Source: Candidatus Nanoarchaeia archaeon (lineage in GTDB: Archaea > Nanobdellota > Nanobdellia > WJKC01). From it: a stretch of DNA of 64,000 bases. Of the stretch, positions 11,415-36,268 are shown piece by piece. The notes under the pieces were generated by a model. It was not told the DNA's origin and ran no database searches. It saw only the letters and a list, made by a program, of their open reading frames with translations. Each line of letters opens with the position of its first letter. Position 1 is the stretch's first letter. The DNA is taken from contig JBAZFG010000006.1 of the NCBI GenBank assembly GCA_041653515.1, positions 484-64,483 on the forward strand. Reading direction: 5' to 3'. Position numbers and translations under genes: made by a program.

Positions 11415-11435
11415 CTGACTTGCTATTAATTATTG

Positions 11436-12782: not shown

Positions 12783-12790
12783 ATGAAATA

Positions 12791-14308
12791 ATGGTTGATG
12801 ATTGGCGTGAGTTTGGTGGTTATCGGATTGGGAGTAACATCCCTATTGGCCAGGGCGCTCCGTGGGAGAACGTTGCCCGCGTGTCCCGCTGGGGTGCGCC
12901 TGTCATTGAATTAAACACTAGTGCTGAGAAGCTGGGCAGTGTTGCTCGTAATGTTATTAAGGAGCAAGCTAAGGCTAATAATCTTGTTTACACTTGGCAC
13001 GTGCCCCCTGACCAGCGGGAGCATGGTGAGTGGGCTGCGCCTAATGACCCAAAACAAAATGAGTTCGCTCGCCAAGTAATGACTGAAACTATTAAGGCTG
13101 CTAAGGATACTGAGGCGCGTCACATTACTTTTCACCCAACGTTTGCACCCCGACCTGCTGAGGGCACAATGTATACTTATGATGCCCGAACTAAGCAAGT
13201 GGGTGGCCACCGGCTTATTGGAGATTTATCTAAGGAGGATAATATTCGGTTGTTGGATGAGCGCGCCAGAGCAGAGATTAACACTCAATTGAATCGCTTG
13301 GAGTCACAGCATAAAATGGTCTCTGATATGGAAGAGACTGCTAAGACTGTTAGGGAATTAGGGGTTAGTGATTCGGTTGCTTGGGATATGGCTTACCTTG
13401 TTGGTGAGTCCGCTGTTATGAGCTCAGCAGTTGGGTTGCAACCTGAGTCATTGTCGCGTGGCGAGTGGACGCGGATTCAGGAGAAAGCGGCTAGACGGCA
13501 ATCATTAAATGATGATGAGAAACAAGCAGTTAAGCAGTTTTCTGAAAAAGTCTTACATCAAGTGGGTGATTATAAGCGGTTGTTTAACTCGCAGATAGCT
13601 GAGCTTAAACCAATGACAAAGATTACTGGCCCTATTATCTCTGATGGTGAGGTTGCGATGAGGCAGAACGTGGCTGATAACCTGGCTGCAATGCCAAAGG
13701 AAGCGCTTAAGATGGCTGTTAATAATGGCATCTCACTTGGCATGGAAAACTTGCCAAAGGATTTCTTGTTTGGCACGCCTCAGGAATTAAATGATACTCG
13801 TGAGCGAGCAGTTAAGGCGTTGGTTGATTCGAAGAAGTTATCTAAAGCTGAGGCTGAGCAATTGATTGGTTTCACGTTTGATTTTGGTCACGCTAACACT
13901 ACTAAGTACTTGGATATTGATGGGGTTAAGTTTGCGGGACCAGCTGAATTCATTGACCAATTAAAAGGCCCGATTAAGCATGTTCACGCGACTGATAGTT
14001 TTGGTGTGGTTGATGGTCACTTACCGTTAGGCCAGGGCGAGGTGACTAAGCAGGAGTTTGATAAGATTAAGGAAGCGTTGAAGCGCAGTGGTTTTAAGGG
14101 CACGGCCATTCATGAGCTTGGGGCTAGTCAGAGCGGCGCGCTTTACCAAGCGACCATGCAGTTTGCAGAGCCAGGTGATTACATGGTTAATGGCTCGTCA
14201 ACGAGCAGTGTCTGGGGGCCTAGTTATGTTGAGGCGGGGATGACTGACCCGTTCATGTTGGAAAAAGATAAGGGGTATTTTTATGAATCATTTGCTGATG
14301 TTTTTTAA
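12791..14308 (+). CDS. xylose-isomerase-like / endonuclease IV-like TIM-barrel protein with large helical insertion
   Basis: Ordered metal-ligand-like motifs: VIELNT, TWHVP, ITFHP, then GMENLP, FDFGHAN, KHVHATD, DGHLPLG, IHELG. AAGGTGA (12777..12782) lies 8 nt upstream of ATG 12791. The track alternative start is GTG 12779. Confidence 0.7.
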   Translation: MVDDWREFGGYRIGSNIPIGQGAPWENVARVSRWGAPVIELNTSAEKLGSVARNVIKEQAKANNLVYTWHVPPDQREHGEWAAPNDPKQNEFARQVMTETIKAAKDTEARHITFHPTFAPRPAEGTMYTYDARTKQVGGHRLIGDLSKEDNIRLLDERARAEINTQLNRLESQHKMVSDMEETAKTVRELGVSDSVAWDMAYLVGESAVMSSAVGLQPESLSRGEWTRIQEKAARRQSLNDDEKQAVKQFSEKVLHQVGDYKRLFNSQIAELKPMTKITGPIISDGEVAMRQNVADNLAAMPKEALKMAVNNGISLGMENLPKDFLFGTPQELNDTRERAVKALVDSKKLSKAEAEQLIGFTFDFGHANTTKYLDIDGVKFAGPAEFIDQLKGPIKHVHATDSFGVVDGHLPLGQGEVTKQEFDKIKEALKRSGFKGTAIHELGASQSGALYQATMQFAEPGDYMVNGSSTSSVWGPSYVEAGMTDPFMLEKDKGYFYESFADVF

Positions 14309-14314
14309 AATTAT

Positions 14315-14322
14315 GGAGGTGA
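14315..14322 (+). promoter_or_regulatory. Shine-Dalgarno-like site (GGAGGTGA) for TTG start at 14327
   Basis: GGAGGTGA lies 4 nt upstream of TTG 14327. Confidence 0.6.
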
Positions 14323-14326
14323 TAAA

Positions 14327-15166
14327 TTGAAGAAGGAGCACTTGAGTACTTTGTCGCACTTAAAGGAGCGCATGGAGTTAATCAAGGAGAAGCCGGGTTT
14401 GCTTGATGAGAGTGATGTTAAACTGGTTTACTCTTTTGCTGGTAAGTTAGCTGGCAAGGAGTACCTTGGTGGCTTAGTGCAGGCAGTGGTCTTGTTTGGC
14501 AGTGTCATGAGGGATAAGCCATCTAGGGCTAATGACCTTGACGTCTTAGTCTTATTGGATGATGTTAGTAATGAGTTAACTAGTGAAATGGCGAGCGCTT
14601 ACAGCTTGTCGGTCGGCTCGTTGTTAGCTAAGCTTAATGCTCAGGAGAAGATTCACTTGACAACGTTAGGCATCATTCGTTTCTGGGATGGTGTTAGGAA
14701 CGGTGACCCAGTGATAATGAGTATTATTCGCTCGGGCAAGCCAATTGTTGATACTGGTTTCTTTAACCCGTTAAAGTCAATGCTTGAGAAGGGCATGATT
14801 AAGCCGACGCGCGAGGCAGTGGTCTCGCACTTGCGTTTAGCTGAGTCATTATTGCGTAACCAGCGTAATTATTATACTCGTTGCGTGGCTGACTTGTATT
14901 GGGCTGTGATGGACGCGGCTCACTCATTGATAATGCATGCCGGGCTTGAGCCAACTCACCCGCGCGATACACCAATTGTTTTCAGGCGGGCGGCGAAGCA
15001 GGTTGGGTTAAGCGTTCGACTGGCTTTAACAATTGAGTCTTTTGTTGGCATAATGAAGAACGTGTCGCATGGCAAGCAAAAAGAATTCACTGGCAAACAA
15101 GTTGACGCATTGAGAGTTAAGGCAGAGTCATTCGTTAAAGCAGTTAAGACAATTGTTGAAAAATAA
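14327..15166 (+). CDS. minimal nucleotidyltransferase (MNT) fused to HEPN-like helical domain
   Basis: NTase signature VVLFGSVMRDKPSRANDLDVLVLLDD (GS-x10-DxD). The C-terminal helical half (LRLAESLLRN...ADLYWAVMDAAHSLIMHAG) resembles a HEPN helical bundle. I saw no clear Rx4-6H motif. Confidence 0.7.
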   Translation: MKKEHLSTLSHLKERMELIKEKPGLLDESDVKLVYSFAGKLAGKEYLGGLVQAVVLFGSVMRDKPSRANDLDVLVLLDDVSNELTSEMASAYSLSVGSLLAKLNAQEKIHLTTLGIIRFWDGVRNGDPVIMSIIRSGKPIVDTGFFNPLKSMLEKGMIKPTREAVVSHLRLAESLLRNQRNYYTRCVADLYWAVMDAAHSLIMHAGLEPTHPRDTPIVFRRAAKQVGLSVRLALTIESFVGIMKNVSHGKQKEFTGKQVDALRVKAESFVKAVKTIVEK

Positions 15167-15190
15167 TTTCTTTATTCTTATTTTTTTATC

Positions 15191-16438
15191 TTAAAATGTT
15201 ATATCACAGTTAGGTAGTGATTGTTTAATCCTGTTTTTTTCGTTCTGATCTAATTTATTATCACTTAACATTAATTTCTTAAGATTTGTTAGTTCTTCAA
15301 TACTATTTGGTAAACTGTTTAATTTATTGAAACTAGCATTTAACACTTCTAATTCTGTTAGTTCACTAATGTAATCTGGTAGTTCACTTAAGCAGGTTGC
15401 GCTGATGTTTAATCCTCTGAGTTTAGTTAAACCTTTTATATTTGGTAGCGTAACTAAATTATTGGAATCTATGTTTAATACTTCTATTTTACTAAGCTTG
15501 TTAATCTCTTCAGGTAAATCACTTAATTGATTCCAACTTAAATCTAATTCTTTTAGATTCTTTAATTTGTATATGCTTTTTGGTATTTTCTTAAATAAAT
15601 TTTCATTTAAGTTCAAAACTTCTAAATTGATTAGTTTTAGTATTGCAGAAGGTAATCTTGTTATATCATTCCCCCTTAAGGATAACACTTTTAAGTTTAT
15701 TAAATCCCCCAGTGTTGTTGGAATCATTATTTTACTTCTTTTACTTTTATCTAAATATAATCCTTCTAGATTTGTTAATTCGCCTATTTCTTCTGGTAAG
15801 TAATATAATTGGTTATAATTTAAATCTAAATACTTAAGTTTTTTTAGATTGTTTACATTTTGTGGTATTGATTCTAATTTATTAAACGTTAATTTTAACG
15901 TATTAAGACTTGTTATTTCATTTATTATTTTAGGATATTTTTTTAGAAAATTACTTGATAAATCTAATTCTTTTAACATTGTTAATCCTTTTATGCTATC
16001 CGGTAAATCTTTTAAAAAATTTCTATATAAACTTAATTTTCTTAATTCTGTTAAATCACTTATAACATCAGATAAAGAACTTAAGTTATATTCTAATTGT
16101 AATTCTATTATTCTCTCTTTTTCTATTACCAGTGAGGATTTAGAGCTAGGAACTAATCCATTATAGTAAGCATTTACGTTGTTATAATCATATAGTGGGA
16201 CATTAATTTTTTTAAGCGTTTCATAATCTTTTTCATATAACCAACCAAACCGTGTGTCAATTATTTTTTCTAATCTTATACCCAAATCTATTGATTCTTC
16301 TTTTTTCTTTAGGAAGTATGATTCTAATCCAAAAGGATTGATATAATTGTTGTAAGAACTTTTATTGTTAATTAATACTTTACTTGTATTCCCCTTTAGG
16401 AAATATCCATCTGGTTTAGATTGATTATTATCACTCAT
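15191..16438 (-). CDS. leucine-rich repeat (LRR) protein with unassigned roughly 110-aa N-terminal head
   Basis: About a dozen 23-aa repeats of the form LxxLxxLxLxxNxLxxLPxxIxxL (e.g. LKNLKELDLSWNQLSDLPEEINKL). The ATG directly abuts the TAA of the vWA gene (TAAATG). Confidence 0.85.
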   Translation of the reverse strand: MSDNNQSKPDGYFLKGNTSKVLINNKSSYNNYINPFGLESYFLKKKEESIDLGIRLEKIIDTRFGWLYEKDYETLKKINVPLYDYNNVNAYYNGLVPSSKSSLVIEKERIIELQLEYNLSSLSDVISDLTELRKLSLYRNFLKDLPDSIKGLTMLKELDLSSNFLKKYPKIINEITSLNTLKLTFNKLESIPQNVNNLKKLKYLDLNYNQLYYLPEEIGELTNLEGLYLDKSKRSKIMIPTTLGDLINLKVLSLRGNDITRLPSAILKLINLEVLNLNENLFKKIPKSIYKLKNLKELDLSWNQLSDLPEEINKLSKIEVLNIDSNNLVTLPNIKGLTKLRGLNISATCLSELPDYISELTELEVLNASFNKLNSLPNSIEELTNLKKLMLSDNKLDQNEKNRIKQSLPNCDITF

Positions 16439-18067
16439 TTAACTAAACCCCTTGAATTCTTTTTTGGCTAAGTCAATGATTAATCCTGATAGGTCATGCG
16501 CATTATTAACTTGATAAGTATTAAAACCATTATCCTGTAAATCTTTATTTGTGTTAGAATGATTATTGATGCTAATAAAATTAAAAGAGTAATTATTCAT
16601 TAATTTCATAAAATCAAATTTAATGTCTTTCCAATTAAGAATTACTCCATCACTAAGCATAATAACTGCACAATTATCTGATTCACTAAGTGATTCATTA
16701 AGAATGTCCATGTTAAGTTTTGTGTTGCCTGACTCAGGATTTAATAATAACTTTTTGGCATCAGTTAGTTTATCATAATAATTAAAACCTGATGTTTTAG
16801 TATTATCTGAGAATAAACAAATGTTGAATCTTGTATCATTAAGTAATTTAATTGATTCAAGATAATTAATCACGCCATAAAAACCTAATAATGCATAGTG
16901 ATAACCTGACTTATTGTTAACATCACAATTCCCCATTGAACCAGAATCATCAATGATAAAGTAAATGTCAGGGATGCCCTTAATTATTTTATTTTCAGTT
17001 AATTTAATTTCAATTGATCCTTTGTTGGTGCATGGGACAAGACAATCAAAATTACTGTTAAAACCAATCTTTGACATATTAAGCTTGCTAATAGCGTCAC
17101 CAGATTGATATGGTTTATAATTAATAGGTAAGCTTAATGATGAGTTTTTATTGTTTGATTTAGGGATTAATTCAATTTTATCAGCCATTAACCTGTAAAT
17201 ATTGTCTAAGTAAACTTCTCGCCCAAACTCTTCCATTAATTTATTGTTAAACCCCTTATCATTAAAATCCTTGAAGATTATTTCTCTAACACCATTAGAC
17301 GAACTTATTTTATTATCAAGTGACTTAGAACCAAATAATAATGGTTGTTTTTGATTAATTTCCTTATTGATTAATGGGCTAATTATATCAATGAATTTAT
17401 TAATAAGGTCTTTATTCCAGATTGTTTCTTTTAAGAAATTGTTTCCGTATTTACCATCAAATAATGATTTTAGTTTCTTAACAGTTTTATTAACTATTTC
17501 ATTATTATTATAAAAACCATTAATTAATTTTTTGTCATGTTTATCACCCCATAAAACAAGTGATAACTTCATGAAAGATTCATATAAATCAGTTAATTCA
17601 TTATTCTTGATGCATTGGTCATAAAAGAACATTGTTTGACCTGCATGATTAGAATAATTATTCCTAACAAATGAGTTAACAATAATGTCTTCAAACATAT
17701 TAGTAATATAAAAATTTATTTCATCATTATTAATACCCTTATTTGATAATGACTTGCTTGTTTTCTTTAATAATTCATGATGATTAAATAAATTTTGAGG
17801 GCAGGTCTCCCAGTGAACTGCTTCATGATAAAGCAAGTCTCTTGCAATAATGTAATCAAGACTTTTGGTTAATTTTTTCTTTTTATAATAATGGCTTAAG
17901 TGCTTGTCACTAATCTTTATTGAATTACCAAGTGATATAGTTATATCCCAACATTTATTGTTAATGCTAGCTTTATATTCTTCATCATTTTTTATTGTTA
18001 AATCACTAAATAAGCCTAGTCTATTCTTTTGTTTGTTAAGTAATCTTTTTTCCTCATGGGTTAACAT
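16439..18067 (-). CDS. HExxH (putative metallopeptidase) plus von Willebrand factor A (MIDAS) domain protein
   Basis: N-terminal LLYHEAVHWETCP (HExxH). C-terminal IYFIIDDSGSMG (DxSxS MIDAS) followed by a vWA-like beta-alpha pattern. Starts 3 nt after the MoxR stop, and GGAG lies within the MoxR 3' end. Confidence 0.75.
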   Translation of the reverse strand: MLTHEEKRLLNKQKNRLGLFSDLTIKNDEEYKASINNKCWDITISLGNSIKISDKHLSHYYKKKKLTKSLDYIIARDLLYHEAVHWETCPQNLFNHHELLKKTSKSLSNKGINNDEINFYITNMFEDIIVNSFVRNNYSNHAGQTMFFYDQCIKNNELTDLYESFMKLSLVLWGDKHDKKLINGFYNNNEIVNKTVKKLKSLFDGKYGNNFLKETIWNKDLINKFIDIISPLINKEINQKQPLLFGSKSLDNKISSSNGVREIIFKDFNDKGFNNKLMEEFGREVYLDNIYRLMADKIELIPKSNNKNSSLSLPINYKPYQSGDAISKLNMSKIGFNSNFDCLVPCTNKGSIEIKLTENKIIKGIPDIYFIIDDSGSMGNCDVNNKSGYHYALLGFYGVINYLESIKLLNDTRFNICLFSDNTKTSGFNYYDKLTDAKKLLLNPESGNTKLNMDILNESLSESDNCAVIMLSDGVILNWKDIKFDFMKLMNNYSFNFISINNHSNTNKDLQDNGFNTYQVNNAHDLSGLIIDLAKKEFKGFS

Positions 18068-18070
18068 TTT

Positions 18071-19249
18071 TTAATACTCCATTAATTGGTTTATGAATTT
18101 TAATCGTCCGTTAAAAACTATGTTACTTCCTTTTATTGTTTCATTAATTTTTGCTTCGTTATCAATTAATTCTTTTTTGATACAATTAAGTATTGAATTA
18201 CTGGCTTCGTATGGGTTACCATGAAATCGGGATTTAATTGAATTATTGTTAATAATCCCACAGTAAGGAGTTATTAATTTTAGTATTTCAAAAAAATCAT
18301 TTAATGCGTCAATAGTGCCTAATTCATATTTAGCGCCTGTTTTTTTTTCATAAACTTGTATGAATGCGGGGTATATGTCTTGATAAACATGTTTTATTCG
18401 TGGGTTTGATTCTTTAGTCATAGTGCAAAACCCTCCTAAATCATTACATCCTTCACAGTCTTTTGGTATATTAATATTTTTTTTGCTAGTATCCTCTTTA
18501 TTACAGTAACCAAGGCCGTGGATTAAGTATTGTGTAGCTATTAATTCAGCGTTAGTATTCTTGATGTAATCATCATTACTAATAAATGATTTATTATCTG
18601 CCCATTCTTTTAGAATGTTTTCTGATAAATCATTTTTATCACCATTAATTCTTTTTAATAATATTTGAGTAGTGTCTTTTGGTGTTGGTTTGAAGTAATC
18701 CATGTTAATTATTATTTGAAACCGATTAAGTAAGGCTTCATCAGTGCCAAACGTGCCAGTGTAATCTCCATTGTTAGGGTTAGCTGCTGCAATGATTATA
18801 TGATACCCATCTTTACCTAAAGGTATTGTTTGTCCCTTAAAATTATAATAACCATCCATAATATTAAATAAATCATTTTGGATTATTTCTGGTGCACGAT
18901 TACATTCATCAATAAATGTGATTAATTTCTTAGTTATTTCATTATTTATTGATATTACTTCTTTGGCTTTTGGGTGGAATTCTTCATAAACATCTTTTAG
19001 GCTGGTATCCTTGTTCATTCTTAAACTATTCATTTTGTTATTGAAGAATGATTTGCCCACACTTTGCGCTAATGTTGTTTTGCCTAAACCTGTTCCGCCA
19101 AGCAATAATATGTTTGATTTTGATATTAAACTTATTTTTATTAAATCTGATAAATCCATTGGTTCACCACCGAAAGTAATAACTTTTGAAGTGTTATAAT
19201 AACCAATTAAGTTTGTGTTATAAACCGATATTTGGTTTTCATTGCTCAT
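18071..19249 (-). CDS. MoxR-like AAA+ ATPase with C-terminal Cys-cluster extension
   Basis: Walker A LLLGGTGLGKTT, Walker B/MoxR box FIDECNRAPEIIQNDLFNIMDG, sensor-1 HIIIAAANP. The C-terminal extension carries C-x15-C-x2-C-x6-C. Confidence 0.8.
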   Translation of the reverse strand: MSNENQISVYNTNLIGYYNTSKVITFGGEPMDLSDLIKISLISKSNILLLGGTGLGKTTLAQSVGKSFFNNKMNSLRMNKDTSLKDVYEEFHPKAKEVISINNEITKKLITFIDECNRAPEIIQNDLFNIMDGYYNFKGQTIPLGKDGYHIIIAAANPNNGDYTGTFGTDEALLNRFQIIINMDYFKPTPKDTTQILLKRINGDKNDLSENILKEWADNKSFISNDDYIKNTNAELIATQYLIHGLGYCNKEDTSKKNINIPKDCEGCNDLGGFCTMTKESNPRIKHVYQDIYPAFIQVYEKKTGAKYELGTIDALNDFFEILKLITPYCGIINNNSIKSRFHGNPYEASNSILNCIKKELIDNEAKINETIKGSNIVFNGRLKFINQLMEY

Positions 19250-19273
19250 GGAATAATTGATTTAGTTGTCTCT

Positions 19274-19281
19274 TTTATAAA
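19274..19281 (-). promoter_or_regulatory. TATA box for MoxR-vWA-LRR operon
   Basis: tttataaa is centred about 28 nt upstream of ATG 19249. Confidence 0.55.
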
Positions 19282-19337
19282 TCTTTACTTTTAATAAAAG
19301 CAGAGTTTATAGTTAATAAATGTTAATTCAATTTTTT

Positions 19338-19991
19338 TTATGCTTGTATTCTTTGTACGCCTAGGTCAACGTCCATTCTTGGGTCGTAATGTAATCTTGA
19401 TTCTAGTCCTTCGTTAGTCTCAGCTAGTTTGTCGGCCATTTCTTTTCTTTCATCGTAGCTTAAGTCGCTGATGATTGATTCCATGCCGTAAGCTGCCGGG
19501 ATTATTGACATGTTAATTCCTCTGGCGTCAGTGAACGGGCCGTAGCGCCTGACTAACGGCAGTCCCCTAATCATGCTGATTAAGTCATTTTTCTCTTTTT
19601 TATTAAGCGTGCCATTAAAACCAACTAAGTCGATTGTTTGTTCTTCAGCTTCTGTTGCCTCGAATAATTCAGGGCACTCTGCTCTGTACTTGAATATTAC
19701 TGGCGCTATGTCGCCGCCAACGCTTATTAGTTTTTTCATTAATGCTTTCTTCTTGTCATTAAGTTTTGAGTAATCAACTGATTGCACTAAGTCATTCTTA
19801 CAGACACTGGTTAAGTGGGTTGCGTAATTACTTATTTGTTCTGGTTTGATGTAACTGCTCATGAAGTTTAACGCACCCATTATTGCTTTGCCTGTTGAGC
19901 TATTCTTGTAATCATTAAGTGTTTGATGGCTTGTCGCGCTATTAACTGAATAACTTGCTCCTGGTTGCTTGACTCCTACTTCAACTGGCAT
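19338..19991 (-). CDS. hypothetical protein (217 aa)
   Basis: ORF track. Overlaps the upstream gene by 11 nt. No motif recognised. Confidence 0.6.
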   Translation of the reverse strand: MPVEVGVKQPGASYSVNSATSHQTLNDYKNSSTGKAIMGALNFMSSYIKPEQISNYATHLTSVCKNDLVQSVDYSKLNDKKKALMKKLISVGGDIAPVIFKYRAECPELFEATEAEEQTIDLVGFNGTLNKKEKNDLISMIRGLPLVRRYGPFTDARGINMSIIPAAYGMESIISDLSYDERKEMADKLAETNEGLESRLHYDPRMDVDLGVQRIQA

Positions 19992-20904
19992 CTTCTTTCA
20001 CCTCGTAGTTTATCATGCCATATAATAGTTTGCCCCAGCCTTGTGTTCTTGTTTTCTCAGCTTCTTTTGGGTGTAAGCCGTGGGTCATGGCTAGTAAAGC
20101 AGTGTATGTTTCCTCGCCGTTCATCTTCTCTAATTCTTTGTGGTCATCGTAAGAGTCATCTAGTAGTGTTTTCATAACGTTCTTAACGTCATTGTCATTC
20201 ATGGTCTTACGGGTTTTGTTCATGTCTGTTTGGTATTCTTTTGACTTGATTACTCCTTCCAGGCCGCCGTTTTTTAGTTTGTCAACAGCTATTACAGCGG
20301 TTACTTCTTTTGCTTTACCGTTTAACTCTTTGGCATCACCAATCTTGCCTTCAAGGCTTTTTAAGTATGGGCTGTTGCTGATTAAGCCCATGTCAAATAA
20401 TTTTTCTTTGATAATATAATGTGCAAGCGATTGTTCAGTGGCTAATTCAATATTTGATTCCTGACCTTGCTTTTTTAATTGGTCGTTTAATCGGTAACCG
20501 TCAAAGACTGCTCCGTAAAAACCCCTGAATAATGATAAAGCTGAGTAAGTGCCCTGTTTAGGTGCAGTCGGGGCTGGTTTAGCTGCGCTTGGCGCAGCAG
20601 TTTTAGCTGCTGTTGCAGGGTTGGCTGGAGTGCTTGGCACTGCTGGCTTTGAAGCAGGCTTGGCCTCGCTTGGCGCGTTTATTTCAGGCGCTTCTGGAAT
20701 ATCAGTTGGCTTAACATCAGGGCTTTCAGGGAGCTGACACTTTTTTAGTAAATCTGTTTTGTCTTTAGCTTCTTTTTCTAATTTTGCCTGTTTATTTGAA
20801 AGATTGTTTAATTCACTTTTTTTATTGCTTAAATCATTATTAATATCAGTGATATAATCAGATAATTCAGTTACTTTAGCATTAATATCACCAGCACCTA
20901 TCAT
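19981..20904 (-). CDS. hypothetical protein: N-terminal coiled coil, Pro/Ala-rich linker, unassigned C-terminal domain
   Basis: Track start is GTG 20910; ATG 20904 is preferred because TATA-like ttataaata lies about 25-30 nt upstream. Linker sequence: PTDIPEAPEINAPSEAKPASKPAVPSTPANPATAAKTAAPSAAKPAPTAP. Confidence 0.65.
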   Translation of the reverse strand: MIGAGDINAKVTELSDYITDINNDLSNKKSELNNLSNKQAKLEKEAKDKTDLLKKCQLPESPDVKPTDIPEAPEINAPSEAKPASKPAVPSTPANPATAAKTAAPSAAKPAPTAPKQGTYSALSLFRGFYGAVFDGYRLNDQLKKQGQESNIELATEQSLAHYIIKEKLFDMGLISNSPYLKSLEGKIGDAKELNGKAKEVTAVIAVDKLKNGGLEGVIKSKEYQTDMNKTRKTMNDNDVKNVMKTLLDDSYDDHKELEKMNGEETYTALLAMTHGLHPKEAEKTRTQGWGKLLYGMINYEVKEDAS

Positions 20905-20939
20905 AGTCACTACTTATCAGTGACTATTTATAAGGCTTT

Positions 20940-21968
20940 CTATGGTTTGTAAAGTGGCAATACAAGCGCTTTATTCTTATTTTGGAGTAAGTTGTATTGT
21001 TTTTCTTTTTCTTTGCCACTATTAGGGTCTAAGTAAATTACTTTGTCGTTCTTAACTCCTTTTACCATAACAAAGTGATTTTCATTAAGGTACATTATTG
21101 GTGGTAACGCTTTATCATCCTTAACCGCTTTCATATACATCTTTAGTTCATCCAAATCCATTTTCCTTGCAAAGAATTTTTTGTCATCACTTTCATTTTC
21201 GTTTATTTTGATTCCAGTAATATCATTCAATAAATTAATCAAATCAAAAGTATCCTTCCATTCATAAGTATAATCAAGTAATGAGTCGCAAACCTTTTTA
21301 TTGGTTGTTTTATTTATCTCATATAACTTGTTGGCTAAACTGAATTCCTCATCAAATGAATCATTTGGTTTTGTTTTATATTTGGCTAAATAATCCGCTT
21401 TTCCATCATCAATTATTTCTTCATTAGTTAATGGTATTTTAATACCTAAATAATCAAGTATCATTCTTGTGCAAGTCAAACCGCACGCCCCAACCCCACT
21501 CCACTCCTTGCCTTTTAGCCCATCAATGATTATTTCATCAGCTGATTCTTTTGATAATAATCCATTCTGGATTAATATTTTATCAATGGTGTTAATATAA
21601 TCTGTTAGTGTAACTATATTATTTTTTAACACAGCAACCTTGCTGTCATATTCAGCCATAGAATTATTGTAGGATTCTTCAATGCCTGTTTTGATTTCAT
21701 TAATTGTTCCAATCAGGTTGGCATATAATTGCCCGCTAGTTGCAGGTAATTTACTTAATTTATCATTAAAATCTTTAATTCTTGCCTCAAGGTCAGTGAC
21801 TGCTTCACCTTTTTCATATGAATTATCTAAGCCTTGTATTTTAACATTGAACTCATTAAACTTGGTTTCTAAACCAGTTAATTGGTCTAAAAAACTGTTT
21901 AATTCAGTAGCATTATCACTAAAGTTCTCTTTCTCCTTCTGTAATTCTGCATTATAATCAACTGCCAT
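20940..21968 (-). CDS. coiled-coil protein with C-terminal C39-like (papain-fold) cysteine peptidase domain
   Basis: Catalytic-type motifs GVGACGLTCTRMILDYLG (Cys) and NENHFVMVKGVKNDKVIYLDPNSG (His...Asp) match the layout of bacteriocin-processing C39 peptidases. The N-terminal roughly 140 aa is heptad-rich. Confidence 0.65.
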   Translation of the reverse strand: MAVDYNAELQKEKENFSDNATELNSFLDQLTGLETKFNEFNVKIQGLDNSYEKGEAVTDLEARIKDFNDKLSKLPATSGQLYANLIGTINEIKTGIEESYNNSMAEYDSKVAVLKNNIVTLTDYINTIDKILIQNGLLSKESADEIIIDGLKGKEWSGVGACGLTCTRMILDYLGIKIPLTNEEIIDDGKADYLAKYKTKPNDSFDEEFSLANKLYEINKTTNKKVCDSLLDYTYEWKDTFDLINLLNDITGIKINENESDDKKFFARKMDLDELKMYMKAVKDDKALPPIMYLNENHFVMVKGVKNDKVIYLDPNSGKEKEKQYNLLQNKNKALVLPLYKP

Positions 21969-21993
21969 GATTAAATTATAGCTATCAGTTCTT

Positions 21994-22001
21994 TTTATAA
22001 A
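21994..22001 (-). promoter_or_regulatory. TATA box for C39-like peptidase gene
   Basis: tttataaa lies in the 38-nt spacer, centred about 30 nt upstream of ATG 21968. Confidence 0.5.
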
Positions 22002-22006
22002 GATTT

Positions 22007-23032
22007 TTATTTAATTTTTATTAACCCCAAATCAATTAATTTCTTAAGATTATCAAGAAACTTTTTAACTTCTTTAGCATGGGACAAAAAATTATCATCA
22101 AATTTATTGATTTTTGATAATAAATTTACGTCTATATTAATGCCTGTTATATTGAAAAGGTTAATACAGTTGTTGATACTTTCTTTTTGGATTGCATTAA
22201 CATAACCTATTTGTACATCAATATTATTAATGACAGGCTTAACTCCTGAGATTTTTTTTAAGTACTCTATCCTGCCCACTTGGCAGCGCCTTATTGTTTC
22301 TGAATAGAATTCTTGTGAGAACTGATTAATTCGGTTGAAATTAACCTGTTCTATAAAACCCGAATTATTAATATTATCTTCGCAACCAAATAAAAAATCA
22401 TTAAGGTAATGATAAGCCCTTTTTTGATTATTACTAAATAAAGGACTGGCTTCCTCAAGAACCTCAAAATTCTTTAATAACTGGTCTAACCTTAGATTAA
22501 TTATGTCATCACTGCACCATGATTTGTCATTAATTGTCACAAGTCGATTAATTAATTGCTGATATAACTTGTTATCAAAAAATTCAACTGGAGAGTCATT
22601 ACCTACTGCAAGATCGTTTAAGTAATTATTAATAAATAATAAGGCGCTATCCCTGCTGGAAAACTTAATTATTTTGCTGTCTATCGTTGAGTAATCACTG
22701 CCATCTAACATAACTGCTTTATGAACACAATGAGGTAGTTTTGGCAGTATCAATAATTTGTCCTCGTCATATTTATACATATAAGCGTACACAGTAAAAT
22801 AATCATCATTTGCGTCAATAGCAAAACCAGACTCAATCTGCTTACCTTCATTAAATAAATGAGGAACTGGGCATAATAAGTAATCAATGTTGTTAAAAGA
22901 ATTTATTCTAAGAAAATAATCCTTCATTGAACAAACTTCTTTGTTAATGATTGTTTTACCATTGGGTACAAAGTAATTAATAAGCTCTGGTTTGATTTTT
23001 TTGATTAGTTTATTTAGAAATGATTTGCTCAT
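22007..23032 (-). CDS. hypothetical protein (341 aa)
   Basis: ORF track. Overlaps the upstream 729-aa gene by 4 nt. No motif recognised. Confidence 0.6.
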   Translation of the reverse strand: MSKSFLNKLIKKIKPELINYFVPNGKTIINKEVCSMKDYFLRINSFNNIDYLLCPVPHLFNEGKQIESGFAIDANDDYFTVYAYMYKYDEDKLLILPKLPHCVHKAVMLDGSDYSTIDSKIIKFSSRDSALLFINNYLNDLAVGNDSPVEFFDNKLYQQLINRLVTINDKSWCSDDIINLRLDQLLKNFEVLEEASPLFSNNQKRAYHYLNDFLFGCEDNINNSGFIEQVNFNRINQFSQEFYSETIRRCQVGRIEYLKKISGVKPVINNIDVQIGYVNAIQKESINNCINLFNITGINIDVNLLSKINKFDDNFLSHAKEVKKFLDNLKKLIDLGLIKIK

Positions 23033-25218
23033 TTTTTGTATTGGATGATTCCCTTAGCAATTGATTCACTTATATTTTTGTTAAGTTCATCTAATTCACT
23101 ATTCCATTTGTCAAAATCATCTTTAATCGCAGTTAGATTGGCTTTTTTGATAAGTTTTATGTCCTTAACATAATCTTCATTTAGCTTATGGTAAGTATCA
23201 ATTAATTTTTGTTTAGACGAATCATTAACGCTAATATTCTGCACTTTCTCATAAGTGCTGTTTGTGTTGACAAAACCATCATCAATGTCTAATGACTTAA
23301 CTTCAGTTGTATTAAGATTGTTATACAATTCATCCCTTTCAGCTATCTTATCTGCAAGCTCTTTTTTAGCTTCGTTAAGCATTGAATCATAATCAGGCGT
23401 TACAGTTGTGCCCGGCACGCTGTTGCTTGTCAGTAAGTTAGCGTAAATATTATCAATATCTGCTGTTTGATTTAGTTTCAGTTTCTTGAAGCTAATGATT
23501 TTGCCATTGTCTTTTTCAACATAACTAGCGCCCTTATTGAAGAAGCTTTCTAAGTTATTATCAATAATATAATTGCTTAATTCCTCTAATGAAATCTTAA
23601 CGCTTGTGTTATCAAAATTAATTGTGTAAGCACTAACAACATTAATTGCAGTTGTCTTAGCGTCACTAAGTAATGTCTTTAACGCAACAGCGTTATTATC
23701 ATCAAGCAAATCACGTAATGAAGTTACCATGCCACTATTTTGCTCAGCACTATTTATAAAGTTTTCCACATCCTTAGCTGGGATTTTGAGTTTTTTGGCA
23801 AAGTACTCAATAGCATCCTCTTCATTACAATTAACAGACTCTGAGTACACAAGTAATTGCTTGTTCTTCTTAACAAAATCGTTAATAGCATTTAACTTTT
23901 GGTCAATAGTAGCATCTTTAGCCAAGCTTTTCTTGATTTGGCCAGCATAAATAGGCATAATATCCCCGAAGTGCTTGTAAAATAATTTCTTCTCCAACTC
24001 AACAATCTGCGCCTCACTAAAGCCCTGCAAGTTATTAGTTAAGTAATCCTTGAGCCCTGCCGCGCCTTCTTTTAATAGTTTTAATCGGGCGTCAAGAACC
24101 ACGCCGCCAACCTCTGCGGTCTTACTTAATTCATCCTCAGAGTAATTGCCCTGATAACTAACTGAATTAACAATAATGCTGTGAACTACTTCCCTGAAAT
24201 CCTTGCCGTCATTAATGTTATTCATTAATAGGTTCCAGCGCTGGCGGATTGTATCTAAAGTCTTAATGTTTTCCTCAGCGTTATTGCCTAAGAGCAACCG
24301 CTCAAGCGTGTCAGTAACGTAAATATCAGTTTTAAGCAATTCATTAAACTTATCAATAGTCCCCATGAGCTTGGCGTACTCTGGGTTACTATTATCACCA
24401 AACATTACTTTTCTATACTCATCAGGGGTTATGTTCAATAAGTGATTAAACTTCATTAAATCACTATACACGACCCGCTCAACATCATCAAAAACGTTGC
24501 TAAGGAAATCACTGCTAACACCATTAACAACGTAATTATCAAGAGTAAGCCCGTTCTGTTCAGCAAGAATTTTTAACTCAGGCGTTAAATTTTTCTCAGA
24601 AACAGCTTTAAGCAAGTTTATATCTGGGTTATTCATATCAATAAACCTTGAAAGCGCTTGCCAGCCAGCATCACTTAACTGCTTTTCCTCACTCATCTTA
24701 ATTCCTTCAAGTTCAGTGTTTAAATCATTTACTATGTCACTAGCGGAGTTAATTATGTTGATAATGTTAGGGTTGTCTGATAATTGCAGGCCATTGGTTT
24801 GCCTGATCTCATAGCCATTATCAATTATTTCATTAACTGGCATGCCCTTGATTAATTCAATTAAGTTATTATAATTAAATTTAGGGTCATTTGATAATTC
24901 AAAACCATTCTTCTCTTTTAGTATTGGCTCTTCAGGGATTGCTTTAATTGAGTAATCACCCCTGAACTTTAGGTTTGCCCCGCAGATGTCATTAATAAAA
25001 TCTACCTGCTCTTTAGTTAGAGAAACATCCTCTTCAGGGTCTTTGTCAACTAACCGAATATTTTTTTCATTATTTCCATTTTTAAGCTTTTCATTAACTT
25101 CTTTCTCGGTCTTTGAAAGGCTGTAAATTGATTCAATTAATGGGGAGTAATCTAGCTGGCCCTCACCAAGTTTAGCCCCTATTGTATACAAATATTTTAA
25201 TAGGTCCACTATTTTCAT
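23029..25218 (-). CDS. large hypothetical protein (729 aa), no TM or signal peptide seen
   Basis: Long uninterrupted ORF. Helical, Asn/Asp/Lys-rich, with a coiled-coil C-terminus. No family recognised. Confidence 0.7.
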   Translation of the reverse strand: MKIVDLLKYLYTIGAKLGEGQLDYSPLIESIYSLSKTEKEVNEKLKNGNNEKNIRLVDKDPEEDVSLTKEQVDFINDICGANLKFRGDYSIKAIPEEPILKEKNGFELSNDPKFNYNNLIELIKGMPVNEIIDNGYEIRQTNGLQLSDNPNIINIINSASDIVNDLNTELEGIKMSEEKQLSDAGWQALSRFIDMNNPDINLLKAVSEKNLTPELKILAEQNGLTLDNYVVNGVSSDFLSNVFDDVERVVYSDLMKFNHLLNITPDEYRKVMFGDNSNPEYAKLMGTIDKFNELLKTDIYVTDTLERLLLGNNAEENIKTLDTIRQRWNLLMNNINDGKDFREVVHSIIVNSVSYQGNYSEDELSKTAEVGGVVLDARLKLLKEGAAGLKDYLTNNLQGFSEAQIVELEKKLFYKHFGDIMPIYAGQIKKSLAKDATIDQKLNAINDFVKKNKQLLVYSESVNCNEEDAIEYFAKKLKIPAKDVENFINSAEQNSGMVTSLRDLLDDNNAVALKTLLSDAKTTAINVVSAYTINFDNTSVKISLEELSNYIIDNNLESFFNKGASYVEKDNGKIISFKKLKLNQTADIDNIYANLLTSNSVPGTTVTPDYDSMLNEAKKELADKIAERDELYNNLNTTEVKSLDIDDGFVNTNSTYEKVQNISVNDSSKQKLIDTYHKLNEDYVKDIKLIKKANLTAIKDDFDKWNSELDELNKNISESIAKGIIQYKK

Positions 25219-25242
25219 ATCTTGGCCTGATTGTTATAACTC

Positions 25243-25250
25243 ATTTAAAT
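25243..25250 (-). promoter_or_regulatory. TATA-like box for 729-aa island gene
   Basis: atttaaat is centred about 28 nt upstream of ATG 25218, in the divergent intergenic region shared with rpl35ae. Confidence 0.45.
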
Positions 25251-25267
25251 GCTTTTTGATAGTAAGT

Positions 25268-25275
25268 TTTATAAA
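25268..25275 (+). promoter_or_regulatory. TATA box for rpl35ae-trm1
   Basis: tttataaa is centred about 29 nt upstream of ATG 25300. Confidence 0.55.
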
Positions 25276-25299
25276 ACAAACACTTTTCCACATTGAATT

Positions 25300-25557
25300 A
25301 TGAAGGCATTAATAGTTTCTTTCAAACGGGGAAGGCACTTGATTCACCCAAGGCAGGCTATAATTAAGGTTAGCGGCATTGAGGATAAGCGCAAGGCAGG
25401 GGCTCTTGTTGGCAAGAAAATAGTGTTTAAGACTAAGAGTGGTCGATTAATGACTGGCGTGATAACAAAGGCTCACGGCGGCAACGGTTTAGTTAGAGCG
25501 CGGTTTGATAAAGGCTTGCCTGGTCAAGCAATAGGCCAAGAAGTCACCTTGAAATGA
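25300..25557 (+). CDS. rpl35ae: 50S ribosomal protein L35Ae (eL33)
   Basis: 85 aa. KRGRHLIHPRQAIIKV...GKKIVFKTKSGRLMTGVITKAHGGNGLVRARF is the typical L35Ae pattern. Confidence 0.85.
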   Translation: MKALIVSFKRGRHLIHPRQAIIKVSGIEDKRKAGALVGKKIVFKTKSGRLMTGVITKAHGGNGLVRARFDKGLPGQAIGQEVTLK

Positions 25558-26546
25558 AGATAATAACTGAGGGCAGTACTGTATTCAAAGCATACACTGC
25601 TGATATAGTTAGCAAACAAATGCCTGTATTCTATAACCCTGACAAGGAGTTTGACCGGTCGCTGTCAGTGAAGATTGTTCAGGCTCTAAAACCGAAGAAT
25701 GCTATTGACTTACTAGCTGCGAGCGGGGCTCGCGGACTAAGATTAATGAACGAGGCAGGCGTTGAAGTAACTTTTAATGACTTAAACCCACAAGCAGTTA
25801 AATTAATCAAGAGCAACTTAAAACTCAATAAGTTAAGCGCGCGAGTTTATAATAAGAACGCTAACCAATTACTCTACGACCTTAATGAATTTTTTGATTT
25901 CATTGACCTTGACCCATTCGGCACCCCAAACCCCTACCTTGACGCTTGCATTAAGCATACATCGAGGCATGGCGTGTTAGCTGTCACTGCCACTGACACA
26001 GCAGCACTCAACGGTGCTCGCTCAAAAGCAGGTCTTCGTAAGTATCACGCAGTTGTTAGTCGTTGCCCGTTCATGAAAGAGCTTGGTTTGCGAGTCTTAA
26101 TCAAGCACGTGATTGAGAAAGGTGCTGAACAGGAGTTAGCGATGAAGCCAATACTCAGTCATTGCACTAAACATTATTATCGGGCTTACTTCCAAAAAGA
26201 GTTAGGTGCTGGCAGGTGTGATTCATTGTTAAGTGAAATAAAAAATCTTTATTATAACCCACAGACTGGTTATCGCGGTCTTGAAGAACAGAAGGGTTGC
26301 ATAGCATTAGGTCCAATTTATACTGGCAGCATTAATTCACTAAAAGTTGATGATGACTTTGTCAAAAGCCTTAATGTTGAGGATGAATTCCCGCCATATC
26401 ATTATAATACAATTGAACTAGGCTTTAAACAAGAACCAAAAATGGACTTACTGTTAAAGAAGTTCAAGGCAATCAGAAGCCATTATGATAAAAAAGTTTT
26501 CAAGACTAAATTAAGTTTGGCTGAGATGAAAAAAATTAATTTCTGA
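25554..26546 (+). CDS. trm1: tRNA (guanine26-N2)-dimethyltransferase Trm1
   Basis: FYNPDKEFDRSLSV, the SAM site LLAASGARGLRL, and IDLDPFGTPNPYLDA are Trm1 hallmarks. Overlaps rpl35ae by 4 nt. Confidence 0.85.
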   Translation: MKIITEGSTVFKAYTADIVSKQMPVFYNPDKEFDRSLSVKIVQALKPKNAIDLLAASGARGLRLMNEAGVEVTFNDLNPQAVKLIKSNLKLNKLSARVYNKNANQLLYDLNEFFDFIDLDPFGTPNPYLDACIKHTSRHGVLAVTATDTAALNGARSKAGLRKYHAVVSRCPFMKELGLRVLIKHVIEKGAEQELAMKPILSHCTKHYYRAYFQKELGAGRCDSLLSEIKNLYYNPQTGYRGLEEQKGCIALGPIYTGSINSLKVDDDFVKSLNVEDEFPPYHYNTIELGFKQEPKMDLLLKKFKAIRSHYDKKVFKTKLSLAEMKKINF

Positions 26547-26593
26547 ATTTAATTAGTAATCTTTTTAAATGGCTTTGTTGCTTCTTTTTGTTG

Positions 26594-27607
26594 ATGGAAG
26601 GTCGTGAGTTGCTTGAGGTTATTTTGCGTGAATTTCCTAGTCTTGACCCTAGTTATGTTCGTGGCGTGGTTGGTCGTAGTTTAGTGTCTCGTCCTGAGAT
26701 TAAGGCTTTTAATGGCGTGCCTTATTTGATTGTTGCTGACCCTTCATTGTCTACTGAGGCTGGTCGTTATGGTCTCGCGGTCAGGGTTGATGGTGAGGTC
26801 ACTGTTGATGATGTTGGTTTCTTGGTTGGTGGCGTGACTCACTTGGGTGTTTTTGGTGAGGAGTGTGATAAGCGCGCTGTCGTGTCATTGGATGGTCATT
26901 CTTGTAAGGGTATGCAGTATGAGGTTGGTGTTGATGGTGGTATGATTAAAGTGGTTGATGTTAAGGATGTTAACATGGCTGTTAACGCTATTAGTAACTT
27001 CCAGCTTAACTGCGTTGGCGGCGGCTTGTTTAATATTAATCGTTTCATGGTTGAGGGTTATACTAAGCTTAAGGATGCTGGTTTTGAGTTGCCTGGTGGT
27101 TTGAGTGATTTGATTACTAGTAACTTGGTTAATGGTCTTAATGATTTTATCTCGTCTTATGAGATTAATAATGATGTGCCGCTTGACTCAATAGTGATGA
27201 AGTTAATTGATTTGGGTGGTTTTAACCCAGGGGTTATTAATGGCTTGCTTGAGGGTCATGAATCATTCACTCAAAGTGTTTACAAATCATTATTTAATAA
27301 GGGTGAAATTTTTACTGCTCGTTCTTTGTTTGGTTGGTCTAAGATAAGTCCTGTTTTTTCTGAATCAGTAGTTCAATCAGGTTATGATTCTTTATTACAA
27401 GAAGGTCGGGTTGATAGTGCTCGTTATTTGTTTGTTTGGTCTAAGATAAGTCCTGTTTTTTCTGAATCATTAGTTCAATCATATTATGATTCTTTTTTCA
27501 AGAAAGGTTGGGTTTATAGTGCTCGTTCTTTGTTTGTTTGGTCTAAGATAAAACCCAATAATGAATTACTAACACAATACAAGATTAAGCCAGAAGAATT
27601 TAATTAA
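26594..27607 (+). CDS. hypothetical protein with C-terminal 34-aa tandem repeats
   Basis: Track start is TTG 26588; ATG is at 26594. The C-terminus carries 2.3 copies of ARSLF(G/V)WSKISPVFSES(V/L)VQS.YDS....G.V.S. Confidence 0.65.
   Translation: MEGRELLEVILREFPSLDPSYVRGVVGRSLVSRPEIKAFNGVPYLIVADPSLSTEAGRYGLAVRVDGEVTVDDVGFLVGGVTHLGVFGEECDKRAVVSLDGHSCKGMQYEVGVDGGMIKVVDVKDVNMAVNAISNFQLNCVGGGLFNINRFMVEGYTKLKDAGFELPGGLSDLITSNLVNGLNDFISSYEINNDVPLDSIVMKLIDLGGFNPGVINGLLEGHESFTQSVYKSLFNKGEIFTARSLFGWSKISPVFSESVVQSGYDSLLQEGRVDSARYLFVWSKISPVFSESLVQSYYDSFFKKGWVYSARSLFVWSKIKPNNELLTQYKIKPEEFN
27317..27555 (+). repeat. 102-bp coding tandem repeat (2.3 copies)
   Basis: Units start at 27317, 27419 and 27521 (gctcgtt(c/a)tttgtttg(g/t)ttggtctaagataagtcctgttttttctgaatca...). 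The third unit is truncated. Confidence 0.9.
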
Positions 27608-30314: not shown

Positions 30315-30887
30315 TCATTCCTGATTGGCTTGTGTCTTTAATTTATTATATAAATCTCTTGGCAGAGAAAGACTTAACTCAAATAATAAATTATCATCTG
30401 CTTCACGAAACAAGTGAATCACACCAGAATAATCAGTGATTGGATTACTGCCAAACAATACGCAACCAATATGACTGCAATTAATGTTTGGTAAAGATTG
30501 CAATTTATTGCGCTGCAAGTATAAACCATGCAATTCAAGCTGGTTGATTGATTCAGGCAGTAATACTAAATTATTATCAGTCAAGCTTAATCGCTTCAAA
30601 TTAGTTAACTCACCAATCCAATTAGGGACTGACGTTAATTGGTTATCCCAGAAGAATAACTCCTCCAACGAGGTTAAGTCACGAACTGATTCAGGAATCT
30701 TAGTAAAACTGTTTTTATGACAATAAAGGCTCTTTAAGCCAAGGGGTAATTTAGGTAAATCACTTAATTGATTCCAACCCAAATCAAGTTTTTCTAAATT
30801 ATCCAAATCAGTAACATAAGACGGGACTGATTTCAAGCCTTGACAAGACAAACTAAGATACATTGAATAATTATTCTTAAGAAACAA
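30315..30887 (-). CDS. short leucine-rich repeat protein (190 aa)
   Basis: About 6 LRRs (LEKLDLGWNQLSDLPKLP, LTNLKRLSLTDNNLVLLPESI...). Shares a 26-nt identical stretch with the LRR gene at 15191..16438. Confidence 0.8.
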   Translation of the reverse strand: MFLKNNYSMYLSLSCQGLKSVPSYVTDLDNLEKLDLGWNQLSDLPKLPLGLKSLYCHKNSFTKIPESVRDLTSLEELFFWDNQLTSVPNWIGELTNLKRLSLTDNNLVLLPESINQLELHGLYLQRNKLQSLPNINCSHIGCVLFGSNPITDYSGVIHLFREADDNLLFELSLSLPRDLYNKLKTQANQE

Positions 30888-32096: not shown

Positions 32097-32254
32097 TGAG
32101 CCCGACGGGATTCGAACCCACGACCTACTGGTATCACCATCCACCAGTGTTTGACCACCAGCCTCGTTCTTTAATTGCTCTCGAACGGGACGCTTCAATT
32201 ACGAAGCGCTGGATGTAAGAGCCAGTCGCTCTAACCAGACTGAGCTACGGGCCC
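32097..32254 (-). tRNA. tRNA-Lys (anticodon CUU) with about 83-nt intron at the canonical 37/38 position
   Basis: Exon 1 (32254..32216): GGGCCCG TA GCTC AGTCTGGTTA GAGC G ACTGG CTCTTA. Exon 2 (32132..32097): A CCAGT AGGTC GTGGG TTCGAAT CCCGT CGGGCTC A. The anticodon stem ACTGG/CCAGT forms only after removing 32133..32215. Confidence 0.8.
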
Positions 32255-36262: not shown

Positions 36263-36268
36263 GATACA

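Follow-up and report, generated by a model that had tools for sequence, protein, structure and literature searches.

The DNA analysed is a 64,000-nucleotide (nt) stretch of a Candidatus Nanoarchaeia archaeon (GenBank contig JBAZFG010000006.1), called the window below, and its subject is a 5.9-kb run of five adjacent minus-strand genes at 19338–25250, together with the operon downstream of them, which encodes a MoxR AAA+ ATPase, a vWA protein and a leucine-rich repeat (LRR) protein. The five open reading frames (ORFs) had been described in a sequence-only reading, based on an ORF list and the letters themselves, and were found at the coordinates given there, with products of 729, 341, 342, 307 and 217 amino acids (aa), i.e. 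p729 (23029–25218), p341 (22007–23032), p342 (20940–21968), p307 (19981–20904 from ATG, or 309 aa from a GTG at 20910) and p217 (19338–19991). A Logan contig (run SRR18595300) was 100% identical to window positions 13073–27363, and independent gene calling on it resulted in the same five products. As argued from stop-codon frequency, ORFs of such length are not a chance product at 36% GC.

The start of p341 lies over the stop of p729 in a 4-nt overlap, and the start of p217 over the stop of p307 in an 11-nt overlap; stop/start overlaps are confined to these two junctions, and p341/p342 and p342/p307 are separated by spacers of 38 and 35 nt, respectively. TATA boxes were located on the minus strand at 25243–25250, 31 nt before the ATG of p729 and within the 81-nt divergent intergenic region common to p729 and rpl35ae; at 21994–22001, 33 nt before the ATG of p342; at 20925–20934, 29 nt before the ATG of p307; and at 19274–19281, 32 nt before the ATG of the MoxR gene, in the 88-nt gap after p217. 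The overlaps, spacers and TATA-like boxes of the sequence-only reading were all recovered, the p307 box being placed at 20925–20934. Because these boxes precede p729, p342, p307 and MoxR, and because overlaps occur only inside the pairs, the eight colinear genes read as four units: p729-p341 (unit 1), p342 with its own promoter (unit 2), p307-p217 (unit 3) and MoxR-vWA-LRR.

A TTTATAAA-like box 29–33 nt before the ATG was present at no fewer than a dozen genes of the window, including rpl35ae, the S8e gene and other core genes. This recurrence ahead of start codons indicates that transcripts in this genome are predominantly leaderless, and the promoters of the five-gene stretch are of the host's own type. 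The box recurs window-wide, with examples upstream of 25300, 31391, 33672, 48537, 62255 and 62309.

The GC content of the window is 0.361. For the 52 genes outside the eight-gene block, which served as the composition reference, mean GC was 0.371 (standard deviation, SD, 0.044) and mean GC at third codon positions (GC3) was 0.343 (SD 0.064). Against this background p729 (GC 0.347, z −0.55), p307 (z +0.64) and p217 (z +0.85) are ordinary, and p341 (z −1.9) and p342 (z −1.5) are low, with a GC3 z of only −1.1 in both. The MoxR, vWA and LRR genes have GC z-values of −1.9 to −2.9, with GC of 0.244–0.288 and GC3 of 0.18–0.23, the lowest of all 60 genes, and GC jumps from 0.40–0.41 in p217/p307 to 0.29 in MoxR. 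What stands out in composition is the MoxR-vWA-LRR operon rather than the five genes. The count of 14 G+C in 60 nt at 22021–22080 given earlier was exact, though 9% of all 60-nt bins are equally low, and 19338–20700 is indeed richer (0.420, versus 0.294 for 20701–23032). The region is a mosaic in composition and evolution, as had been proposed, but the deviating piece is the ATPase operon. Two GC-rich patches (0.45–0.48, versus the window mean of 0.36) were also observed, one at 12779–15166 spanning the AP_endonuc_2-like and nucleotidyltransferase genes, and one at 34883–37222 spanning the genes for cysteinyl-tRNA synthetase (CysRS) and a pyridoxal phosphate-dependent enzyme.

The p307 protein of unit 3 is built of a short coiled-coil-like N-terminus, a Pro/Ala-rich linker and a C-terminal domain conserved in relatives. 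An exhaustive HMMER search of 1.84 billion cluster representatives, run with p341, p307 and p217 joined as the query, gave no match of library-wide significance for p307 and two homologues of p217 (P0033, E-value 1.4e-22, and P0036, E-value 7.8e-14; 28–34% identity); a word-indexed search of 5.8 billion proteins returned for p217 only the protein itself. Two related, short metagenomic contigs from other samples (L014 and L015) carry p217 homologues, and the gene fragments upstream of these align with p307 residues ca. 190–303 (28–31% identity, E-values 8e-7 and 2e-12). The relatives come from sequencing runs SRR10018917 and SRR14699980. In both contigs the order is p307-like C-terminus, p217 homologue and then, tail to tail, a nucleotidyltransferase gene 70% and 62% identical, respectively, to the plus-strand gene at 14327–15166 of the window (NTP_transf_2 by Pfam match), which serves as the synteny anchor since it abuts the p217 homologues in the relatives. 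In L014 only, the next gene is AP_endonuc_2-like and 65% identical to window 12779–14308. The MoxR-vWA-LRR genes are absent between the p217 homologue and the nucleotidyltransferase gene in both contigs.

Judged from these alignments, p307-p217 is a positionally conserved pair that diverges about twice as fast as its neighbours, and it may be regarded as a two-protein unit held at its locus in related genomes while diverging. Since the pair occurs without MoxR-vWA-LRR, it does not depend on the ATPase operon, and this applies to insertion and loss of the operon alike. The AlphaFold2 (AF2) model of p217, made from a three-sequence alignment, was unusable (mean predicted local distance difference test score, pLDDT, 41.9), and the protein is predicted to be helical.

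The operon itself occupies 4.1 kb (15191–19249) exactly between p217 and the nucleotidyltransferase gene. On the minus strand it comprises MoxR (18071–19249; AAA_5 and AAA_3 Pfam matches), the vWA protein (16439–18067; weak VWA matches; reading of the sequence shows LYHEAVHW, an HExxH motif, at the N-terminus, as well as a metal ion-dependent adhesion site, MIDAS, of the DxSxS type, DDSGSM) and the LRR protein (15191–16438; Pfam match). The only close MoxR-vWA homologue, with 64% identity, was found in a Candidatus Nanoarchaeia metagenome-assembled genome (MAG; locus L002), where its upstream neighbours are a tRNA gene with an intron and an unrelated gene instead of p217; the tRNA gene (618–773) lies directly upstream of the MoxR homologue, and GC there is host-like (0.36). 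The MoxR homologue has the accession MFA5406297.1. Alignment of MoxR against genome contigs gave no match, and a metagenome scan gave one MoxR only, of 25% identity and uninformative. Around the MoxR-vWA-LRR block no convincing direct or inverted flanking repeats or insertion scars were seen.

Insertion is the simplest reading of the operon because it is absent at the junction in L014 and L015, has its homologue elsewhere beside a tRNA gene, and has the lowest GC and GC3. MoxR-vWA-LRR is thus most likely a later insertion between p217 and the nucleotidyltransferase gene and functionally independent of the five genes, the direction of the event being our inference.

The L002 gene upstream of the MoxR homologue, by eye a candidate for a transcription factor B (TFB)-like protein, was rejected as it has no similarity to the TFB of the window. 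Genes for tRNAs of about 157 nt, presumably intron-containing, are present at 32097–32254 (minus strand) of the window and at 618–773 (plus strand) of L002, and both were found by Rfam and missed by ARAGORN; they encode different tRNAs and were rejected as synteny. A second, short LRR protein (190 aa) is encoded at 30315–30887 (minus strand), between the genes for ribosomal protein S8e and TFB.

The sequence-only reading had proposed an accessory, probably horizontally shuffled module tied functionally to the ATPase operon. All eight genes would on this view be one system, with the five proteins as effectors, scaffolds or substrates which a MoxR-vWA-LRR chaperone or sensor assembles or licenses in the manner of the nucleoside triphosphate (NTP)-dependent conflict systems. 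Elsewhere, MoxR-vWA pairs act together with effectors that vary and with scaffolds of coiled-coil or repeat type (PMC7159879); here, the eight genes lie side by side on one strand across 10 kb, p341 and p342 are on the AT-rich side, and a peptide shared by p729, p342 and p307, described below, could dock onto the vWA or LRR protein. Relatives nonetheless have p307-p217 at the same junction without the operon, and the close MoxR-vWA homologue lacks these neighbours; MoxR has a TATA box of its own after the 88-nt gap, and GC changes sharply between p217/p307 and MoxR. No VMAP, iSTAND, FtsH or vWA-fused beta-propeller domain was found in the eight proteins with Pfam and NCBIfam, no known effector domain was recognised, and PADLOC matches were weak and below significance. 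We consider a single system quite improbable. The proposed functional tie to the ATPase operon is contradicted by the separate promoter and by the differing contexts of the homologues. As the five genes do not co-occur with MoxR-vWA in the relatives examined, they are not shown to be its effectors.

The p341 gene adds to this from the other side. The exhaustive HMMER search returned about 35 homologues of p341 (E-values 1e-80 to 1e-4), of 183–1030 aa and with 33–46% identity over residues 20–245. A scan of GTDB species genomes located ten loci of the family in Nanoarchaeota, Parvarchaeota, Undinarchaeota and Promethearchaeota, the last being the label carried by the nearest homologue. By these matches p341 is a member of an unnamed DPANN/Asgard family, not an orphan; the family has no Pfam model. 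Alignments define an N-domain of ca. 230 aa with the motifs YILCPVP, E.GFA, LPHCVH, FFD.KLYQQL and FLFGCED, which p341 matches in 28 representatives with E-values of 1e-80 to 1e-31, and a C-terminus of ca. 33-aa helical repeats whose copy number varies among members. In p341 two degenerate repeats, predicted to form helix pairs, align with the repeats of five homologues (P0006–P0010). The AF2 model of p341 (32-sequence alignment; pLDDT 84.5, predicted TM-score 0.83) gives the N-domain an alpha/beta fold, and Foldseek gave no significant match to the model in PDB or BFVD. A few family members carry Ras/Roc/Arf-type GTPase, tetratricopeptide repeat (TPR) or DnaJ domains. A PADLOC match of p341 to AbiTi was sub-threshold (E-value 1.7e-4), fell on the AT-rich C-terminus and was judged not credible.

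In three Nanoarchaeota MAGs the p341-family gene (L007, 9998–11344; L013, 9914–11107; L017, 9538–10436) directly follows an rpoB-rpoA-(L7Ae-family)-NusA-S12-S7 cluster, and in L007 it also precedes the gene for elongation factor 2, which is by gene order a housekeeping context. Tandem paralogues of the family occur in L004, L006 and L016. In at least 12 loci with p341 homologues elsewhere, no homologue of p729, p342, p307, p217, MoxR or vWA was found nearby, which argues further against a single system; in the loci compared the eight genes do not move as a block, since the relatives have p307-p217 without MoxR-vWA-LRR and p341 without the others. LRR proteins were also noticed near p341 homologues in L005, L007 and L011.

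On the far side of rpl35ae-trm1, a Pfam-negative 339-aa protein (26588–27607, plus strand) shares the repeat module of the p341 family, in three copies of the ca. 33-aa helical repeat (WSKISPVFSESVVQSGYDSLLQEGRVDSARYLF). Its repeats matched those of p341 with an hhalign probability of 98% (E-value 2.9e-14), phmmer matched it to p341 homologues, and its similarity to the p341 N-domain was not significant. It may be a divergent p341 paralogue.

Most plausibly, to go by the predicted helical repeats, p341 is a protein–protein scaffold or adaptor. Of the roles offered earlier (effectors, scaffolds or toxin/immunity-like pairs), the scaffold fits these repeats, whereas no toxin or immunity family was matched. 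In unit 1, translationally coupled to p341, p729 would be a lineage-specific partner of this scaffold. The p729 protein is soluble and probably largely helical. It had no match in Pfam, NCBIfam, PADLOC or PHROG, nor in IMG/VR or GenBank phages (tblastn), and no p729 homologue was found beside p341 homologues elsewhere; as possible p729 relatives, a 670-aa protein encoded ahead of the p341 homologue in L018 and the genes ahead of that in L016 were considered and rejected as unrelated. When p729 and p342, joined into a single query, were searched by word index against 5.8 billion proteins, only p729 itself came back, and within that search p729 apparently remains an orphan. The earlier statement that the five are orphans consequently stands for p729; it does not for p341 with its homologues, p342 with its peptidase match, or p217 with its two homologues.

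The p342 protein is recognisable in its C-terminal half. Residues 270–328 match PF03412 (E-value 1.5e-9, 38.2 bits against a 22-bit cut-off), a match spanning only profile positions 59–118 of 133, and residues 161–214 score 23.6 bits with PF13529, just below the 24-bit cut-off. In weak alignments to the double-glycine protease domain of PDB 6mpz, ACGLTCTRMILDYLG of p342 aligns to CGAASLAMVLAYY, and NHFVMVKG..DPNSG aligns to NHFVVLKG..DPAKG, so that the motif order in p342, CG...MILDYLG and then NHFVMVKG...DP, is colinear with that domain. The Cys of the CG motif and the His and Asp of the HF...DP motif are presumably the catalytic residues, as in the C39 family generally. About 130 aa are inserted between the Cys and His motifs, more than in canonical C39 domains.

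From these motifs p342 is predicted to be a coiled-coil-like N-terminus (residues ca. 1–140) fused to a papain-fold, C39-type cysteine peptidase. For the N-terminus, the matches were weak and confined to coiled-coil families, EzrA, SF-assemblin and ASRP among them. The heptad-rich coiled-coil starts proposed before thus have weak profile matches in their favour for p342, but when the sequences were screened for heptad periodicity with a crude script, neither p342 nor p307 showed a coiled-coil segment, so that the label comes from these matches only. No match to p342 was found in IMG/VR, and no credible one to p729, p341, p307 or p217 in Pfam, NCBIfam, PADLOC or PHROGs. No ATP-binding cassette (ABC) domain was found in p342 or its neighbours, the 29–38-nt spacers contain no leader-like small ORF, and reading of the neighbouring genes brought up no evident double-glycine leader candidate. 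The sequence and motif order of p342 thus appear to be those of a C39 peptidase, and its surroundings lack the exporter and leader of bacteriocin-processing C39 domains. The protein probably cleaves an intracellular protein partner rather than exporting a bacteriocin, and unit 2 would then be a C39-type protease acting inside the cell and held in place through its coiled-coil-like N-terminus.

A peptidase among fast-diverging genes also invites the view that the stretch encodes host-interaction or antagonism factors of an episymbiotic archaeon in the style of polymorphic toxins, in which p342 would process or release effectors or toxins (p729, p307) and p341 or p217 would be chaperone- or immunity-like. 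That p307 and p217 diverge faster than the genes around them, that the C39-type fold is used in leader or toxin processing, that genes are paired and translationally coupled and that the closest homologues are DPANN-like is all consistent with it. The five proteins, however, have no signal peptide or transmembrane helix (19-residue Kyte-Doolittle means of at most 1.11 in all five, in agreement with the by-eye reading); with Pfam, NCBIfam, PADLOC and PHROGs, no domain for toxicity, immunity or trafficking was recognised; genes for an ABC exporter or for secretion are not adjacent, and no double-glycine leader candidate is evident nearby; and genes of the p341 family are found in housekeeping contexts. 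Antagonism is, on balance, unlikely.

A short motif had been reported in p342 and p307, and it is indeed present in both; in the relaxed form L[ST][DN]YI it also occurs in p729. The relaxed motif occurs four times in the 19,047-residue proteome of the window versus 0.10 expected: at residue 14 of p307 (region 20863–20877, residues 10–24), at residue 121 of p342 (region 21567–21608, residues 121–134), at residue 547 of p729 as LEELSNYIIDNN (region 23548–23592, residues 543–557), and in CysRS. No paralogy was found among the eight proteins of the block at E < 0.1, and a Smith-Waterman alignment of the p342 and p307 N-termini was not significant, with 7% of shuffles scoring as high. Because the pattern was chosen post hoc and the wider N-terminal alignment is not significant, we take the motif as pointing to a possible docking or trigger helix common to these proteins and do not count it in favour of a single system. 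A bolder arrangement, built on the motif and on the coiled-coil-like segments, would have p729, p342 and p307 form a protease-containing complex particular to this DPANN lineage on p341 as the scaffold, with MoxR-vWA(HExxH)-LRR recruited to remodel or license it. If true, archaea would have a conflict or host-interaction system not described before, in which an LRR sensor is the third component, but we regard this as a long shot.

Looked at as a horizontal island, the stretch has little to offer: in composition p729, p307 and p217 deviate by no more than 0.9 SD from the 52 reference genes, p307 and p217 are present at the locus in L014 and L015, and no integrase, tRNA target or flanking repeats were found. 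Because the pair is of ordinary composition and at the same locus in two relatives, the single horizontally shuffled module of the sequence-only reading fails, for these two genes, by the very comparison which that reading had named as refuting it. If the stretch were what is left of an integrated virus or another mobile element, this would account for a run of unannotated same-strand genes with mosaic GC; such an origin is extremely unlikely, given that PHROGs gave no integrase, capsid or other match, IMG/VR none for p729 and p342 and GenBank phages none for p729, that no tRNA gene is adjacent (the nearest is at 32097) and no repeats flank the stretch, and that the promoters are of host type and two of the genes syntenic in relatives.

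We therefore favour, with a probability of roughly 0.7, that the 5.9-kb stretch consists of three separately promoted native units of fast-evolving, lineage-specific soluble proteins in a small archaeon of the symbiotic, DPANN-like (Nanoarchaeia-like) type, and that MoxR-vWA-LRR was inserted later between p217 and the nucleotidyltransferase gene. The orphan appearance of the genes would then come from fast divergence.

Several points weigh against this. The synteny comes from two short contigs (2.4 and 1.65 kb) which end inside the p307 homologue, before the positions of p342, p341 and p729, so that presence at the same locus in relatives refers to p307 and p217 only. Loss of MoxR-vWA-LRR in both relatives, instead of an insertion, is possible. 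All eight genes are colinear on one strand, and read-through transcription is possible as well. The p729 and p342 proteins were searched by the word-indexed method only, and distant homologues may exist; the roles proposed for p729, p307 and p217 are tentative. Finally, three of the five proteins contain L[ST][DN]YI (3 observed versus 0.02 expected, for a post hoc pattern), which hints at a functional link between p729, p342 and p307 that independent units leave unexplained.

The surroundings are archaeal, and unannotated genes are common in them. Archaeal markers within the window include L35Ae, S8e, TFB and the thermosome, and the closest relatives of several window genes are in DPANN (Nanoarchaeia) MAGs. 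About 12 of 30 other window proteins have no Pfam match, so that unannotated genes are the norm in this genome. The left flank (11433–15166), which had been taken for core translation genes, encodes instead a 449-aa protein of no assigned family, an AP_endonuc_2 TIM-barrel protein and the nucleotidyltransferase.

When orphan genes line up in an archaeal genome of reduced size, transfer of an island is not the only possible cause. In the present case the run appears as native, fast-diverging genes in stable positions beside a separately acquired ATPase operon, which bears on how dark-matter "islands" in DPANN genomes are read. The stretch is ordinary DPANN dark matter with three modest leads, none of which overturns current understanding: an uncharacterised DPANN/Asgard family with a confidently predicted N-domain, sometimes fused to small GTPases and often beside the RNA polymerase/ribosomal gene cluster; a C39-type peptidase that stands alone, begins with a coiled-coil-like segment and has no obvious export role; and a MoxR-vWA-LRR module in a DPANN-like genome.

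The repeats of the p341 family (WSGIxP..VQxGYxxLFxKGWIxxAxxL) are predicted helical hairpins and in this resemble the alpha-solenoid scaffolds of the pentatricopeptide repeat (PPR) and TPR type. The likeness of the p341 model to PPR is weak, being to designed PPR proteins only (Foldseek probability 0.2–0.28), and p341 differs in having no significant sequence or structure match (best E-value 0.28) and an N-domain of ca. 230 aa without a detectable structural relative in PDB or BFVD.

With the C39 domains of PCAT (AMS) ABC transporters, such as LahT150 (PDB 6mpz), p342 has in common the PF03412 match and the motif order. It differs from them in the absence of a transmembrane or ATPase domain and of a nearby transporter, in its coiled-coil-like N-terminus of ca. 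140 aa and in the long insert that separates its Cys motif from its His motif. Pairwise, it matches solved structures only weakly (E-values 0.09–0.3).

The adjoining operon is comparable to the MoxR-vWA ternary conflict systems (Kaur, Burroughs, Iyer and Aravind 2020, PMC7159879) in its MoxR AAA+/vWA couple with Walker A/B and MIDAS motifs and in its repeat-containing third protein, with a similarity to PF20030 (bpMoxR) that is weak and below the Pfam cut-off. Unlike in those systems, where the third component is VMAP, iSTAND, FtsH or a vWA-fused beta-propeller, its place is taken here by a standalone LRR protein; an HExxH region is present at the N-terminus of the vWA protein, and the five upstream genes do not co-occur with MoxR-vWA in the relatives, a small sample.

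A general counterpart of the stretch is the DPANN dark matter surveyed by Makarova, Wolf and Koonin (2019, PMC6393860), according to whom DPANN genomes are unusually rich in such genes and a stable gene neighbourhood may keep genes that evolve fast. Of the five proteins, none was assigned to a family named there, though the sequences of the survey were not compared. An MNT-HEPN fusion is DPANN-conserved and found in housekeeping contexts (PMC6393860), and the window nucleotidyltransferase (14327–15166), of which the NTP_transf_2 part alone was detected, may correspond to it. The likeness to the survey lies in fast-evolving, unannotated genes set among housekeeping genes, and in p341-family genes that follow the S12-S7 genes in three MAGs.

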